64,000 nt of DNA, from assembly GCA_965213625.1 (NCBI GenBank), contig CBDBZU010000004.1:1152001-1216000 (forward strand), written 5' to 3'. Within the stretch, counting starts at the first letter, position 1. Every line of letters starts with the position of its first letter. Source of the stretch: a bacterium. Lineage in GTDB: Bacteria > UBA8248. The notes under the pieces are model-generated. The model worked only from the letters and a program-made list of their open reading frames with translations. It was not told the DNA's origin and did not search any database. The position numbers and the translations under genes are program-made. Below, one piece after another: positions 56,326 to 63,782 of this stretch.

Positions 56326-59220
56326 ATGAGTACCCAAATCGAAACGCCCCCCGCCGTATCCCTGATGGAAGATATCCGCATCGAGGGCGCGCGGGAACAC
56401 AACCTGAAAGACATCTCCCTCAAGCTCCCGAGGGAGCGCTTCATCGTCGTCACGGGCCCCAGCGGTTCGGGCAAGTCCTCTCTCGCGTTCGACACCATCT
56501 ACGCGGAAGGCCACCGCCGCTACGTGGAGAGCCTCTCCACCTACGCGCGGCAGTTCCTGGAGCGCGTGGACAAGCCCGACGTGGACTACATCGAGGGCAT
56601 CAGCCCCGCCATCGCCATCGAGCAGTACAACCCGGTGAACCATTCGCGCTCCACGGTGGGTACGGCGTCTGAGATTTACGACTATCTGAGGCTGCTCTTC
56701 GCGAAGGCCGGAAAAATCCATTGCCCCGACTGCGGGAGTGAGGTCGCGCCCGCCACGGTCGACGGCACGGTGGCGCTCTTGCTGAACACCCATGAGGGTT
56801 CGAGGGGGTTCGTTCTCTTCCCGATGGGGGAGGTTGATTCGGATGATTTGCAGGGGGAACTCGAATCCCTGATGGGGCAGGGCTACGTCCGGGTAATGGT
56901 GGACGATGAGATCGTGAACATCGGCCCTCCGCTTTTCGAGAGGCTGAAAGAAGAGGCTGAGCCGCCTCCCAAACCGAAGAAGCGGGGCCGTCCTCGCAAA
57001 AAAGAGCCTCGTGAAGAGAGGCCCGCCGTGCGGAATCATCATGCAATTCGCGTAGTGGTGGATCGCCTCAAGTTCTCCTCCAGAAACCGCGCGCGCCTGG
57101 GCGAATCGCTGGAGACCGCGTTTCGGGAAGGTGGCGGCGTCGCCGAGGTGCAGTTCGTGGACGGGCCGAGGCTTCGCTTCAGCCAGCGGCTCGAGTGCTG
57201 CGGCCACACCTTCGAAGAACCCGTTCCGCACACGTTCAGCTTCAACAATCCAAACGGCGCCTGTCAGGAGTGCGGCGGGTTCGGGAACACGCTCAGCTTC
57301 GATGAGTCCCTCATCATCCCCGAACCCAGGAAAACGCTCGCCCAGGGTGCGGTGGAGCCCTGGGCGCGGCCGCGCTACCGCCGTTATTTCGGCGAGCAGT
57401 TACAGGACGCCGTCAAGTCCGAGGGCCTCGACATCCACACCCCCTGGGCGGAGATGCCCGAAGACCAGAAGAAGATGGTGTTCGAGGGGGCTGGGTCGTT
57501 TCTGGGCGTGTACCGTTTCTTCGAGAGGCTCAAGCGCAGGAAATACAAGGTCTGGGTGCGCGTGATGATCAGGCGCTACCAGAGCCTGCAGAAATGCGCC
57601 TCCTGCGGGGGAACGCGCCTGCGCCCCGAGGCGCTCTGGATCAAGCTGGGCGATCGCACCATCGCCGATATTTGCGCCATGCCGGTGAGCGAGTTGCGCG
57701 AATACTTCGAGGCCCCGCCGCTCACGCCCGATCAGCATGCGCGCGCGAGCGACGTCTTGAAACAGGTGCGCGAGCGTCTCGATTTTCTGCACAAGGTGGG
57801 TCTCGAATATCTTACCCTGGACAGGGAGACCAGAACCCTGAGCGGGGGCGAGCACCAGCGGATCAATCTGGCGAACCAGTTGGGCGCGCACCTCACGGGC
57901 ACGCTCTACATTCTGGACGAGCCGACCATCGGCCTGCACCCCAGGGACAACGCCCGCTTGGTGAGCATCCTGAAAGACCTGGTCGATCGGGGGAACACGC
58001 TGCTCGTGGTCGAGCACGACCGCGACGTCATCGACGAGGCGGACCACGTGGTGGACCTGGGTCCCGGCGCGGGCGAGCGCGGGGGCGAGGTGGTTTTCTC
58101 AGGACCCAGAGAAGAGCTCGACCTGTGTGAACGGTCGGCGACGGCGAAGTTCCTGAGCGGCGAGCGAGAGATCAGTCCGCGCAAGATCAAGCGCGGGGAG
58201 AACGGGAGCTGCTCCTACCTCTCCCTGCTGGGCGCACAGGCGAACAATCTGAAAAAGGTGGACCTCCACGTTCCCCTGGGCCGTCTGGTGGCGGTCACCG
58301 GCGTCTCCGGCTCGGGGAAGAGCACACTGGTGCACGACACGCTCTATCCGGCGCTGGCGCGTATTCTCCACGACGGCAAAGGCGCCATCGGCCGCTTCGA
58401 GCGGATAGAGGGCTTCGAGGAGCTCGATTCGGTCGTCCTGCTCGACCAGAGCCCTATCGGCAAGAGCCCCCGCAGCAACCCCATCACCTACCTCAAGGCC
58501 TACGACGCGATCCGCCGCCTGTTCGCGGACACGCCGCTGGCGCGGAACATGGGCTATAGCCCCGGACATTTTTCGTTCAACACCACCGGGGGGCGGTGCG
58601 AGTCCTGCACCGGGAGCGGCATCCAGAAGATTGAGATGCACTTCATGGCCGACATCTTCATCCGCTGTCCCGATTGCGAGGGCAAACGCTTCAAGCCCCA
58701 GGCCATGGAAATCCAGTACAAGGGCAAGAACATCCACGACGTGCTGAACCTCACGGTGGACGAGGCGAGCCTCTTTTTCGATCACGTGCCCTCGGTGCTG
58801 AACAAGCTGCTCATCTTGAGGGACGTAGGACTCAACTACCTCCGGATCGGCCAGCCCGTGAACACGCTCTCAGGCGGCGAGGCGCAGCGCCTGAAGATAG
58901 CGGGCCAGCTGGCCGCCAAGCCGCCGAGAGACGTCATGTACCTATTGGATGAGCCGACCACGGGTCTGCACTTTCAGGACGTGGAGCGTCTGCTGAACGT
59001 GCTGACGCGCCTCGTGGGGCTGGGGAACACGGTGGTCGTCGTCGAGCATAATCTGGACGTCATCCGAAACGCCGAGTGGGTGATCGACTTAGGGCCCGAG
59101 GGAGGCGACAGGGGCGGTCGCATCGTCGCCGAGGGCACGCCCGAGGAGGTGGCGCAGAATCCCCGCTCGCACACGGGCGGGTTCTTGAGGAAGTATTTCG
59201 AAGAGGCGGTGGTGGGCTGA
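56326..59220 (+). CDS. uvrA: Excinuclease ABC subunit UvrA
   Basis: [27 protein letters not shown], zinc-binding Cys motifs, LSGGEHQRI...[14 protein letters not shown] and [10 protein letters not shown]...LDEPTTGLH. Confidence 0.96.
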
Positions 59221-60405
59221 TCAACTTCCTGCGGCGCGTCACGCTTCGGCGCCTTGCGCTGGCCGCTTCGTTTCTCTTGCTCCTTTTGTTCGTGGCATCG
59301 CGTTTTTCTCCGAGCCTTCGCCACCCGGTGGATTCCCTCCTGATGGCGCAGGGGCTTATCGACGTGCGGAGTGGCGGCTGGCTCTCGCATCTCACGAAAA
59401 AGCCGGCAAGAACAGAGATTTCATTCGGTGGCATTTTCGCGGATTCCTATTCGCCGGGTGATTTCCTGGGCTGGGGCGATACGCCCGCGCGCGGATGCGT
59501 CGTCCTCGTCCACGGAATGACCACGATGGGCAAGGCGGATCATCGGCTGGTGGCGTTCGCGGAGTCGCTTGCGAGGTTAGGTTTCACGGCGCTCGTCCCC
59601 GATTTGCCCGGCATGAAACAGTTTCGCCCCGAGGAGGCGGACATTGCGCGCATCGCGAAGTCATTCTCGTGGATGACGCGGCGCGGCGCGGGTTCGTTCG
59701 ACAGGTGCAGTATCCTTGCGTTTTCCTTCGCCGCCGGCCCTGCCCTTCGCGCGGCGGCAAGTCCTGCGGTGGGCCAGAAGATGGGCGCGTTCATCGGCGT
59801 GGGTGCCTATTACGATCTTAAAAACGTGCTGAGACACCTCACCACGAGCGGCGGACAGAACCGGCCCGCCTTCCCCGGCGGGCTGCCCATCCGCCACGGA
59901 AAATGGCTCTTCCTGCGCTACAACTTGGAACTCCTGGGTCTGGAGGGCCACCGGGATCGGGTCGAGGCGGTCGTTTCGAGAAAGCGGAAAGACGAAGCGG
60001 CGGATATCGGTGATTTGCTCGCCGGCTTGCCCGAGGGTGCGCGCGCCATCATCGCCTTGATGGAGAACAACTCGCCCGAGCGCTTCGAGGCGCTTTATGC
60101 GCGGGGAGGAGCCGCACAGCGCGCACGTTTGCAGGGTTGGGGGATGCGCGACGTCGTTCCCGGGGTGAGGGGGGAAGGAATTTTTTCTGCACGGGCGTGA
60201 GGATCCCTTCATTCCGGCGTCCGAGAGCATCCTGCTGGCGAATCGTGCGCGGGAGACCTCAGGCGATGCGGCGTCGTCCTTCGTCTTCGGTGGTTTTCGT
60301 CACGTGGGCATCAAGGCGGACGTTTTTTCTCCAGCCCGGATTCTGGATGGCGCGCGTTTTTTGGGTTTTATATCCGCCGTCCTGAGCGCGATGGAAGAGA
60401 GGTGA
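59217..60405 (+). pseudogene. Membrane-anchored alpha/beta hydrolase with an apparent +1 frameshift in a G6 run (60169-60174)
   Basis: The first frame has a hydrophobic anchor, VLVHG, VPDLPG and a nucleophile elbow AFSFAAG, then stops at TGA 60198-60200. The +1 frame continues FFLHGREDPFIPASES...FRHV to TGA 60403-60405. Start uncertain (CTG overlapping the uvrA stop). Confidence 0.65.
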
Positions 60406-60499: not shown

Positions 60500-60958
60500 A
60501 TGACCGATCAGAATACCATCACCCGGGTGGCGAACGCGCAGTGGATGGGGGATTTGCGCGCCCGTATACAGGCCCGCGATTGCCCCGAGTTCTCGAGCGA
60601 CGAACCCGTGGAGCGCGGCGGCCTGTTCGAGCATCCCACCCCCGCCGAGTATATGCTCGGCGCGCTGACGGGCTGCGGCGCGGCGCACGTGGAGTTGTTC
60701 GCAAACGAAGTCGGAATGCCGATCGATGATTGCGCGATCGAGGGTCGCCTCACCATGGAGCGCTTCTCTCCCGGCGACCCGCACGCGGAGAACGGGGGCG
60801 TCACCGGCGTGGAGCTCGATATCGAGGTCACCTCGGCGGGCTCTGCGGAGGAACTCGAGGAAGTGAAGGAGAAGTTTCGCGCGGGCTGCATCCTGTATCT
60901 GTTCATGAGTACGGCGACGCGCGTGGATGACAACTGGACGCTGAAGCGGCCCGGATAG
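60500..60958 (+). CDS. OsmC/Ohr family protein
   Basis: SDEPVERGG...PTPAEYMLGALTGC, and a second Cys in AGCIL. Confidence 0.85.
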   Translation: MTDQNTITRVANAQWMGDLRARIQARDCPEFSSDEPVERGGLFEHPTPAEYMLGALTGCGAAHVELFANEVGMPIDDCAIEGRLTMERFSPGDPHAENGGVTGVELDIEVTSAGSAEELEEVKEKFRAGCILYLFMSTATRVDDNWTLKRPG

Positions 60959-60998: not shown

Positions 60999-61913
60999 AT
61001 GAACCTATCTACCCATGTCGTGGGCCTGCTGTTCGCCACCTCGGCGCTTCTGAGCTGGACGAGCCTGTCCTTTTGCGTACGACTGGCGATGAAGAACGCG
61101 CCGCTCCTGAGGACGACGGCATGCATGTCGACCTTGAACGGCGTCTTCGTCGCCGTTCTGATCTACTTCACCCTGCCGGTTTCGGCCTTTCAGCCCGGGA
61201 CGACGAGAACTTGGATCCTGCTGCCGGTCACCGCCTTTTTCATGATCACCATATCGCGGCTCACCTACTACTACGCCATCAGGCGCATCGGGCCGAGCCG
61301 CACCATTCCCATTGCGGCGAGCACGCCCGCCGTAACCGCGCTTCTGGCCACGATATTCCTGGGCGAGCCGTTCACGTTTCTCATCTTCCTGGGGCTTTTG
61401 TGCCTCATCCTGGGACTCAACATGGTGGTGCGCTCCGCACCTGCGCAGCCGAACCTCGAGATGGGCCACACGCGAAAGGACGTCGTCAAGGGATATATCT
61501 CGGCGGGCCTGACCACCCTGAACTGGAGCGTCTCGGGCGTCATGGTGCGGACCATCACGCTCGACATGAACGCGCTGGCCGCATCGGCGCTGCTCATCTG
61601 GATAGGACTTGCCTTCGCCTGGGTGCTGGCGGTCGGTTTCGCTCACAGGGAGACGGCGGAGAAAATCCCCCGGGCGAGCTGGAAGTGGATGCTCATCGCC
61701 GCCATCTGCCAGACGATAGCGGTGCCCTCGTTCAGCAACGCCATGGCGCGTACCTACGCGGTGGGCGTCACCTCCATCACGTCGGTTCAGCCGCTTCTGG
61801 TGATCATGGTTTCGCACCTGTTCCTGCGGGAGAGCGAGAACATCACGGGCAAGCTCGTCCTCGGCGCGGTGATGACGGTGGTGGGAACGGTCCTGATACT
61901 GATCCGCCTCTAG
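60999..61913 (+). CDS. EamA/DMT family transporter
   Basis: Two EamA halves (AIRRIGPSR...FLGEP; FLRESENIT) with ten hydrophobic segments. Confidence 0.85.
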   Translation: MNLSTHVVGLLFATSALLSWTSLSFCVRLAMKNAPLLRTTACMSTLNGVFVAVLIYFTLPVSAFQPGTTRTWILLPVTAFFMITISRLTYYYAIRRIGPSRTIPIAASTPAVTALLATIFLGEPFTFLIFLGLLCLILGLNMVVRSAPAQPNLEMGHTRKDVVKGYISAGLTTLNWSVSGVMVRTITLDMNALAASALLIWIGLAFAWVLAVGFAHRETAEKIPRASWKWMLIAAICQTIAVPSFSNAMARTYAVGVTSITSVQPLLVIMVSHLFLRESENITGKLVLGAVMTVVGTVLILIRL

Positions 61914-63133
61914 GGTTTCTTGATCCGCTCCACGCTCTTTCGCGAGAAGACGGCCTCATGCCCGAAGCGCTCTCGTATCTCATCGAGGCTCTCCACCAGG
62001 CGCTCCTCCTTCTCCCTGTCCCGATCCTCGAACAGCAGCGGCTGCGCGCGGTCTTCATCCAGTCCTGAGAGATAGACCCCCAGCAGGCGGAATTTCCGGT
62101 TCCGGCCCTCTTTCGCGCAGGTGCGCCGCAGGAGATCGAGCGCGGGTTCGATGATTTCCTTATCGAGATGGGTGGGTTTATCGAGCGTGAACGAGCGCGT
62201 GAGCGTCGTGAAATCGGAAAACCGGATTTTGAGGGTGATGTGCCTGGCGCTGAGACCCTTGCGGCGCACGCGCGCGCTGGCCTCCTCGGCCAGGCCCGTG
62301 AGTATGGCTTCGAGCTTCGCGCGGTCGGCGGTATCTTCCGAGAAGGTGGTCTCCTTGCCGATGCTCTTGGGCCGACTGTCGAGTTCGAGTTCGGAATCAT
62401 CCAGCCCCCGCGCCTTGCGGTAGAGTTCGGGTCCGAGGTTCTTGAACTGTGCTTCTAAAAATGGCAACGATTGGTTGCCGAGATCGCCGATGGTCGTGAT
62501 GCCCAGGCGGTTCAGTTTCTGGACCATCACCTTGCCCACGCCGGGGATTTTGCTCACCTTGAGGGGACGCAGAAAGGCCGCCTCACCGCCCGGGTAGATG
62601 CGCAGTATGCCTGCGGGTTTCGAGAGGCCGGACGCGATTTTAGACACCAGGCGGCTCGACGCCAGCCCGATGGATGCCGAACAGTTCGTCTCGCGCAAAA
62701 CAGCTTCCCGAATCCTGGCCGCCGTTAGAAGTGGGGGGCCGTGCAGGCGTTCGGTGCCGCTCAATTCGAGATACGCCTCATCCACGGAAACGGCCTGCAC
62801 CGCGGGCGTGAAGTCCCCGAGTATACGCATCACACGCCTGGAGGCTTCGCCGTATTTTTTGTGATTCGCCTGGATGTAGACGGCTTGGGGGCACAACTCG
62901 CGGGCGCGTGTCATGGGCATGGCCGAGTGGACGCCGAAGGCTCTCGCCTCATAGGAAGCGGCTGAGACAACGCCGCGCCGCCCCACGCTGCCGCCCACGA
63001 TTACCGGCTGGTTATCGAGGTCGGGCCGGTCCATGCGCTCCACGGACACGAAAAAGGCGTCCATGTCCACGTGCGCGATGAGCCTGCTCTCGCGCTGCGA
63101 CTCCTGCGCCGGCTCTTCTGGGCGTTGCGTCAT
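61910..63133 (-). CDS. dinB: DNA polymerase IV (Y family)
   Basis: HVDMDAFFVSVE, RGVVSAASYEARAFGVHSAM, SVDEAYL, SKIASGLSKPAG, KSIGKETTF, TLKIRFSDF and RLLGV. Confidence 0.95.
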   Translation of the reverse strand: MTQRPEEPAQESQRESRLIAHVDMDAFFVSVERMDRPDLDNQPVIVGGSVGRRGVVSAASYEARAFGVHSAMPMTRARELCPQAVYIQANHKKYGEASRRVMRILGDFTPAVQAVSVDEAYLELSGTERLHGPPLLTAARIREAVLRETNCSASIGLASSRLVSKIASGLSKPAGILRIYPGGEAAFLRPLKVSKIPGVGKVMVQKLNRLGITTIGDLGNQSLPFLEAQFKNLGPELYRKARGLDDSELELDSRPKSIGKETTFSEDTADRAKLEAILTGLAEEASARVRRKGLSARHITLKIRFSDFTTLTRSFTLDKPTHLDKEIIEPALDLLRRTCAKEGRNRKFRLLGVYLSGLDEDRAQPLLFEDRDREKEERLVESLDEIRERFGHEAVFSRKSVERIKKP

Positions 63134-63164
63134 GCCCGTTTCTCTCACGTGAAACGCGGCGGCG

Positions 63165-63782
63165 TCAATACTTTCGGAGCACCCCCACGACGACGCCCTG
63201 GATATGGAGGTCCGCTTCATTCACCATGATGGGCGCCATCGTCTCATTCGCAGGCTGGAGCCTGATTTGCGCGCCCTCTCTGTAGAACCGCTTGAGCGTA
63301 GCGGAATCTCCGTTCACGAGCGCCACAACGGTCTCTCCGTTCAGCGCATTGTTCCGGCTCTCCACGATCACGTAGTCCCCGTCCTGTATGTGATCCTCGA
63401 TCATCGAGTCGCCCTTCACTTTCAGGACGTAGAGGCTGCCGTCCCCCGACGACCAGGGGAGGGGGATGGTTTCGGTGTCCTCTATCGCCTCGAGCGGCAT
63501 GCCCGCCGCGATCATGCCGCGCAGGGGAAGCTCCACCCGCGTCGGTTCGGCGCTTGCGGCGATGGTGTCCGAACCCGGGACGAGTTCGATGGCCCGGCTT
63601 CTGTTCCAGCTTCTCTTGATGAGGCCTTTTTCCGCGATGTTCTGTAAGTGCTTGTGCACCGTAGCGGGCGAGGTGAGGTGGAAATGCTTTCCGATCTCCA
63701 CGATCGAAGGCGCGTAGCCGTTCGCCCCGATGAACTCCTTGATGAATTCGTAAATTTCTCGTTGCCTGCGCGTGAGGAACAT
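63165..63782 (-). CDS. lexA: SOS-response transcriptional repressor LexA
   Basis: LTRRQREI...PSIVEI...SPATVHKHL HTH, Ala-Gly cleavage site IAAG, catalytic Ser (GDSM) and Lys (TLKR); GGGAGG RBS before ATG 63782. Confidence 0.95.
   Translation of the reverse strand: MFLTRRQREIYEFIKEFIGANGYAPSIVEIGKHFHLTSPATVHKHLQNIAEKGLIKRSWNRSRAIELVPGSDTIAASAEPTRVELPLRGMIAAGMPLEAIEDTETIPLPWSSGDGSLYVLKVKGDSMIEDHIQDGDYVIVESRNNALNGETVVALVNGDSATLKRFYREGAQIRLQPANETMAPIMVNEADLHIQGVVVGVLRKY

Follow-up and report, generated by a model that had tools for sequence, protein, structure and literature searches.

We find that a 64,000-nt stretch of a bacterial genome of the GTDB lineage UBA8248 (assembly GCA_965213625.1, contig CBDBZU010000004.1, forward-strand positions 1,152,001 to 1,216,000; called the window below) carries, at 56326..59220 on the forward strand, an open reading frame (ORF) of 964 amino acids encoding a paralogous full-length UvrA in which a basic, AT-hook-like loop is inserted into the UvrB-binding domain. 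The assignment to UvrA comes from family scores: the protein scores 1119 bits against TIGR00630, above the cut-off of 729.8, and 1153.5 bits against PRK00349, narrowly passing the cut-off of 1147, and its top PDB relative is the Thermotoga maritima UvrA (3pih, E 6e-285). ABC_tran matches it in four stretches, with two ABC ATPase modules, and the domain order (two ABC modules, UvrB-binding domain, insertion domain, zinc modules) is identical to that of canonical class I UvrA from E. coli, G. stearothermophilus (2R6F, 3UWX), T. maritima (3PIH) and C. thermocellum (9GXK). Its Walker A lysines, K50 and K665, occupy the positions of K37 and K646 in E. coli, and residues G520, R257, E263, R730 and R740 are the retained equivalents of E. 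coli G502, R216, E222, R712 and R722. As its sequence reads, the gene is a second full-length UvrA with both ATPase sites and the UvrB-binding domain kept, 47% identical to the canonical UvrA of the same genome and 49% identical to E. coli UvrA.

The UvrB-binding domain spans residues ~117–290 (56674..57195, forward strand, as are all features of the protein), between C133-x2-C136 and C291-C292, as delimited by PF17760 matches, AlphaFold2 and the cysteine alignment. Matches to the Pfam family UvrA_inter (PF17760) flank the insert, which therefore lies inside this domain. Between the flanking strand VDDEIVNI and the next conserved stretch the paralog has 39 residues and E. coli K-12 UvrA has 11, a net insert of 28, and the figures given by an earlier reading of the DNA made without database searches (the sequence-only reading) thus hold in alignment. 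Alignments to PDB entries break at the same place, with ~8 residues between the flanking strands in T. maritima 3pih and ~6 in C. thermocellum 9gxk. From these and from ortholog alignments the whole expanded loop, loop 1, is residues 200–240 (56923..57045), 41 residues with a net charge of +6; bases 56935–57036, marked as the insertion at the outset, correspond to residues 204–237. The loop starts with a short conserved helix, PxLFxRL..., at residues 201–211 (56926..56958), recognized from the AlphaFold2 model and from conservation in the genus, followed by a disordered basic segment at residues 212–240 (56959..57045). Within this segment lies the AT-hook-like core KKRGRPRKK, residues 218–226 (56977..57003, with RGRP at 56983–56994), which bears out the initial placing of such a motif inside the UvrB-binding domain, between PF17760 matches. 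Acidic runs border the basic core, EEAE before it and EPREE after it. An AlphaFold2 model built with a 91-row alignment (mean pLDDT 86.2, pTM 0.76) folds the UvrB-binding domain confidently except for the insert, where residues 201–211 are helical and 212–240 are coil, with pLDDT below 50 for residues 220–237.

At the DNA level, an imperfect 26-nt direct repeat (56950–57000, 1.9 copies, 80% match, score 67) covers the codons of EEAEPPPKP and KKRGRPRKK, with a period that three does not divide. The repeat could be a trace of the birth of the insert by slippage, or it could have arisen by chance in purine- and GC-rich sequence.

The core resembles the HMGA-type AT-hook, with the Reeves consensus TPKRPRGRPKK given in the available text of a 2024 review (PMC11354804), and the hooks of WhiB7 and CarD: it shares the R-G-R-P core, K/R on both sides, flanking prolines and, with its pLDDT below 50, disorder. 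It differs from these in being an internal loop of an ATPase docking domain, where theirs sit in the tails or linkers of transcription factors or architectural proteins, and in being a single copy, not conserved beyond one genus and without a Pfam match. WhiB7 is named as an AT-hook-containing bacterial protein in that review, and with CarD as a second example, the initial remark that the motif is rare in bacteria was an overstatement. AT-hooks as such are thus known in bacteria; what appears to be new is to meet a basic, disordered loop of AT-hook-like form in the UvrB-binding domain of a divergent, class-I-like UvrA paralog. The sequence-only reading knew of no earlier account, and a whole-word search for ‘UvrA’ with ‘AT-hook’ found no description in the open PMC and bioRxiv literature. 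Looser word-start matches led, among those listed, to cancer, microRNA, autophagy and other non-bacterial topics, where we take ‘UvrA’ to stand for UVRAG.

The genome (4.15 Mb, 59% G+C) has one uvrB and one mfd. A second, canonical uvrA, which the sequence-only reading had proposed to look for, is present at G000:C4:2538290-2541040, 1.33 Mb away; it scores higher, at 1366 bits, and keeps the RGRKG motif and a short loop. The pair is a feature of the phylum. A paralog-type match was found in 49 of 51 species genomes of the phylum, at 56–100% identity, and not in G017 (93% complete) or in G020 (79% complete, with no match of either type). Canonical-type matches, called by identity band at 43–56%, were found in 48–49 of the 51 and not in G009 or G020. 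In a FastTree phylogeny (LG, 88 sequences, 921 columns), from which two mis-picked ORF rows of a first tree (the ‘canonical’ entries of G023 and G012) were left out, the paralogs are monophyletic (19/19, support 1.0), as are the canonical copies of the phylum (11/11, support 0.998). Branching in both clades follows the families, f4 first, then f2/f3, then f1, as drawn in the first ASCII tree; the later tree gave supports alone. This suggests vertical descent of the paralog, side by side with the canonical UvrA, across the phylum.

The two clades are not sisters. The canonical copies fall with E. coli UvrA in a group of 41 tips, group A, while the paralog belongs to group B (47 tips, support 1.0), together with other full-length UvrAs that lack RGRKG. 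The nearest named database relatives of the paralog are metagenome-assembled genomes labelled Nitrospinae, Nitrospinota or Tectomicrobia. Group B has shed basic residues that group A keeps nearly without exception. In E. coli numbering, R158 is present in 40/41 members of group A, K159 in 41/41, R724 in 40/41 and R730 in 41/41. The corresponding columns of group B hold R158 in at most 2/47, K159 in 11/47, R724 in 19/47 and R730 in 1/47, with histidine at the last position in 33/47; R216 and R712 are retained in all 47. A histidine at the R730 position is, by this alignment, a hallmark of group B, and tree and alignment together indicate that group B is a deep UvrA lineage without the canonical RGRKG loop and without one or two of the signature-II arginines. 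The paralog itself keeps two of the four signature-II DNA-binding arginines (the equivalents of R712 and R722), and M742 and H748 (58549..58569) align to the DNA-binding R724 and R730. As for the significance of these positions, the quadruple mutant R712A R722A R724A R730A is listed in the available text of PMC3025350 as the one among its UvrA derivatives in which DNA-binding activity is disrupted. The paralog also has an acidic loop 2, D171-S-D-D-L175 (56836..56850), where canonical UvrA has R-K-G-E-H/Y (E. coli 158–162), and the early remark that RKGEH is missing from this copy is thus correct.

A further difference from class I UvrA lies in zinc module 1, which hinges the UvrB-binding domain. 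Its C133-x2-C136 is present, whereas the second pair is an adjacent Cys-Cys, C291-C292 (57196..57201), instead of CxxC; in this form the module may still bind zinc. The adjacent pair is found in all aligned family-f1 paralogs, while f2, f3 and f4 keep CxxC. In some other group-B proteins (P0114, P0046, P0117 and P0086) these cysteines are missing altogether. In sum, the paralog departs from class I by the 28-residue basic insert, the absence of the RGRKG(E)(Y/H) loop, the replacement of R724 by M and of R730 by H, the altered hinge module, and its place in a separate deep clade.

The history of the loop was followed in 49 aligned paralog orthologs, one per species genome. Within the genus (21 species), RGRP is present in 16, and GRP and RGR in 18 each. 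The exceptions to RGRP read RGRA, RGRL or RSRSP, or are two species (L022 and L025) in which the insert is mostly deleted; one further species, L026, has a tandem RGRPRRGRP. Residues G200, P201, L203, R206 and L207, at the start of the loop, are invariant in all 21. Within the genus, RGRP reaches a column conservation of 0.89, compared with 0.74 across the remainder of the insert and 0.92 over the full protein, and all four RGRP codons vary synonymously (first R CGG/CGC/CGA, G GGC/GGT, second R CGT/CGC/CGG, P CCT/CCC/CCG). As conservation at this level goes together with synonymous variation at every codon, RGRP is under purifying selection at the depth of the genus.

Outside the genus the motif gives way while the character of the loop is largely retained. 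Sister genera carry RGRGRPPK, KSRGRR, KGRGRK, KGRPPK, or lysine/proline/serine-rich H1-like runs such as KKKTRAKKKTAPKSPKKK, in segments of 28–69 residues. GRP or RGR occurs in 5 of the 15 aligned family-f1 orthologs from other genera except g8, and in none elsewhere. Loop net charge is at least +4 in 33 of the 36 family-f1 orthologs outside g8, whereas in g8 and in families f2, f3 and f4 (13 orthologs) the loop is 13–22 residues long with a net charge of −7 to +2, the basal families carrying a short acidic loop. What persists at family depth is only charge and disorder, so that the basic disordered loop is the general feature and the AT-hook its genus-level form. The prediction of RGRP conservation among relatives thus stands for the genus and fails beyond it, where lysine-rich or degenerate basic loops, or none, are found, and the hypervariability that would have spoken against the motif is seen at family depth but not within the genus. 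Actinobacterial TopA and HupB carry lysine/alanine/proline-rich, H1-like basic tails that add non-specific DNA affinity. The KKKTRAKKKTAPKSPKKK-type segments of the sister genera resemble such tails, with the difference that the segment of the paralog is an internal loop and not a C-terminal tail.

Basic inserts are not restricted to this loop or this clade. The unrelated P0046 has an independent basic insert in loop 1 (PKARKGRKKKE), and loop 2 carries basic inserts in the f4 genera g12, g13 and g15 (e.g. PPKRGRGGKGKSGPGKDGRKER; 5 of the 7 f4 rows shown) and in P0057. On these alignments, basic inserts have arisen at least four times in group B. The f4 paralogs L047, L048, L049, L052 and L054 combine a short acidic loop 1 with a basic G/K/R-rich insert at the canonical RKGEH position (aligned residues 166–175). 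Two proteins labelled Nitrospinota or unlabelled, P0041 and P0043, which match the f4 paralogs L047 and L052, have a basic proline-rich stretch with RRGKPARPGE at residues ~610–640, in the linker between the two ATPase halves.

Three wider searches bear on how far the insert extends. A regular-expression survey matched 179 of 270 UvrA-family proteins, with a median loop-plus-strand length of 24; several apparent long ‘loops’ turned out to be spurious hits to other parts of the sequence, and true long loops outside the clade were only those of P0046 and P0124, the latter not basic. A word-indexed search with residues 186–250 gave 20 hits among 31 candidates, all in one close clade, so the exact insert is confined there, a result that speaks to the exact insert and cannot show that other UvrAs lack AT-hooks. 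In a library-wide profile search, the best 150 hits were mostly long proteins (1265–2343 aa), largely double-length, multi-stretch UvrAs ranked high by their summed scores, and they were uninformative about the relatives of the paralog.

The UvrB-interface residues R216 and E222 of E. coli (Manelyte 2010, PMC3025350, available text) are kept as R257 and E263 in 11 of 11 aligned paralogs, this protein included. When the UvrB-binding domain (residues 115–295) was modelled with residues 148–258 of the UvrB of the same genome, the complex reached an ipSAE of 0.68 against 0.02 for the best control, the mark applied being one that 116 of 157 solved complexes and 2 of 215 mismatched pairs reach; as a similar complex is already solved (3FPN, 3UWX), this pass attests likeness and could reflect memorization by the model. 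The runs agree in at least 97% of contacts, with a partner pLDDT of at least 79. Since both ATPase sites and the UvrB-contact residues are kept, the paralog most likely still hands DNA to the single UvrB. The confident contacts to UvrB are residues 160, 163, 180, 183–184, 186–188, 245–249, 253–254, 257, 260–261 and 264; none of residues 200–240 is among them, residues not named here being uncertain in the model. The altered UvrB or Mfd docking that the sequence-only reading had considered is therefore not indicated, within that same uncertainty. As strand 160–166 leaves the interface and strand 241–249 returns to it, we infer that both the insert and loop 2 exit from the end of the domain that points away from UvrB. 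According to the available text of a cryo-EM study of C. thermocellum UvrA (PMC12796330), the UvrB-binding domain is mobile and invisible without UvrB and, with a flexible zinc-finger region as its hinge, keeps UvrB domain 2 next to the DNA clamped by UvrB.

Because a mobile domain beside DNA here carries a 29-residue cationic disordered chain, we favor the reading that the insert is an auxiliary electrostatic or minor-groove DNA tether, and consider the chances that this is correct to be about even. We suggest that, in family f1, a loop of the mobile UvrB-binding domain grew into a short helix and a disordered cationic segment of ~29 residues. This segment could act as a flexible tether that makes electrostatic contact with DNA generally; in this genus it would also contact the minor groove, preferring grooves that are narrow and AT-rich. 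The tether would contact the DNA flanking the UvrA footprint, and it could raise DNA affinity or dwell time, or keep the UvrB-binding domain near the DNA during loading of UvrB. It may also partly make up for the lost basic residues. What is observed is the insert with its location, disorder and conservation pattern, together with the paralogy and the loss of basic residues; DNA binding and any effect on repair would follow from them only by interpretation. The more specific proposal made at the outset, of a minor-groove reader, is less well served by these data, as RGRP is lost beyond the genus and the selected property looks like positive charge and disorder.

Several observations weigh against the tether. 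At 59% G+C, the genome offers only a minority of AT-rich targets. Bare RGRP occurs 41 times in a crude set of 3,689 ORFs from this genome, where 40.5 are expected from composition, and Pfam AT_hook (which we take to be PF02178) gave no match, either on the full protein or on the 39-aa piece, where 0 families were returned at E up to 10, a search in which the HMMER filters may drop short models. With no family match and bare RGRP at chance frequency, the case for an AT-hook rests on context and conservation; among the 41 genomic RGRP sites, that of the paralog is the only one with K/R at six of eight flanking positions, the next three having four, in an ORF set where lysine makes up 3.8% of residues. 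The insert is furthermore the least conserved part of the protein and is largely gone in 2 of the 21 species of the genus (L022 and L025), the loop of genus g4 is non-basic, and g8, nested inside the family in the 88-sequence tree, has no insert at all, which together mean that the segment is dispensable in some lineages. Lastly, several paralog lineages without the arginines have no basic insert either (f2, f3, g14 and g8), and this weakens a strict argument from compensation.

On these grounds, the insert could instead be a tolerated low-complexity expansion in a permissive surface loop, produced by replication slippage and drifting, with no DNA-binding role; if the loop does nothing, it is an ordinary lineage-specific low-complexity insert. 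The loop varies from 13 to 69 residues over the 49 orthologs with little sequence conservation beyond the genus, it is deleted in L022 and L025 and absent in g8, and the 26-nt repeat over the motif codons and the tandem RGRPRRGRP of L026 could be marks of slippage, with the missing Pfam match and the chance frequency of RGRP on the same side. We nevertheless find a neutral origin and persistence somewhat unlikely. Positive net charge is held in 33 of 36 family orthologs despite the turnover of sequence, and drift alone would not favor lysine and arginine in a genome with 3.8% lysine. In the genus, RGRP is conserved about as well as the whole protein with synonymous changes at every codon, and basic inserts have appeared independently in two loops of the same domain as well as in two other group-B proteins.

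Alternatively, the loop could be a regulatory or docking element that folds onto the acidic loop 2 (DSDD) or another acidic surface and thereby gates the UvrB-binding domain or the ATPase, or that recruits Mfd or the hydrolase-like protein encoded downstream. Such a role would fit the acidic runs EEAE and EPREE on either side of the basic core and the emergence of the loop, inferred from strand directions, next to the acidified loop 2. It has a parallel in an AT-hook that regulates a SWI/SNF DNA-dependent ATPase (available text of PMC10403523), and 27 of 29 related loci have the downstream ORF next to the paralog. On the other hand, residues 200–240 are not among the confident UvrB contacts, with the reservation about unnamed residues given above, and the way the sequence turns over between genera is more in keeping with non-specific electrostatics than with a dedicated protein interface. 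We regard this option as rather improbable.

Class IIa paralogs (D. radiodurans UvrA2 2VF7, Ecm16 7SH1 and DrrC) are likewise second UvrA-family proteins beside a canonical one, but the available text of PMC9328131 describes class IIa UvrAs as having neither the first zinc finger nor the UvrB-binding domain, so that the insert of the paralog sits inside a domain they do not have. A class II (drug-resistance) identity was accordingly rejected, as the paralog has both modules. That the AT-hook competes with or senses minor-groove-binding natural products, in the manner of Ecm16 or DrrC and in line with the link to drug-protecting UvrAs first drawn for this locus, is very improbable: AT-hooks do occupy the same groove as distamycin and netropsin (PMC11354804, available text) and class IIa UvrAs do confer resistance to DNA-binding drugs (PMC9328131, available text), but beside both modules the paralog has the R216 and E222 equivalents, vertical inheritance across the whole phylum, and ordinary metabolic neighbours with no biosynthetic cluster among them.

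Returning to the tether, a broader version of it would join several of these observations, and we offer it as a long shot. Group B, a deep and widespread lineage, would have shed basic residues (the RGRKG loop, R724/R730) and repeatedly regained charge as disordered inserts on the UvrB-binding domain, with one genus arriving at a true AT-hook that biases the second sensor to narrow-groove, AT-rich or pre-bent DNA, e.g. T-tract photoproduct hot spots of this 59% G+C genome. Two UvrA sensors of differing DNA-context preference would then feed one UvrB.

UvrA is regarded as a sensor that takes no account of sequence context, and the role ascribed to its UvrB-binding domain is protein docking alone. 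Were a conserved paralog to carry a DNA-binding-type motif on this mobile domain, it would be a natural experiment on how contacts with flanking DNA affect damage search and UvrB loading. It would also bear on the reason for which certain phyla maintain a pair of full-length UvrAs alongside one UvrB, and the recurrent gain of basic loops in a lineage with lost canonical basic residues constitutes a concrete and testable structure–function hypothesis.

The neighbours of the paralog in the window are genes for hydantoinase/oxoprolinase (hydantoinase A/B), OsmC, EamA and a Y-family polymerase. Directly 3′ of uvrA lies an alpha/beta-hydrolase-like gene (59343–60200, forward strand), whose start is uncertain, the ORF being listed from 59076; it has a weak Abhydrolase_1 match of 25.5 bits, just below the cut-off of 25.8. 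This gene adjoins the paralog on its 3′ side in 27 of 29 related loci across the family, and the upstream hydantoinase B is kept in only 5 of the 29. The paralog uvrA and the downstream hydrolase-like gene are a conserved gene pair. Further downstream are the OsmC gene (60500–60958) and an EamA transporter gene (60999–61913), which lie between uvrA and the gene for the Y-family (ImpB/MucB/DinB-type) DNA polymerase (61913–63220), located on the opposite strand 2.7 kb downstream of uvrA.

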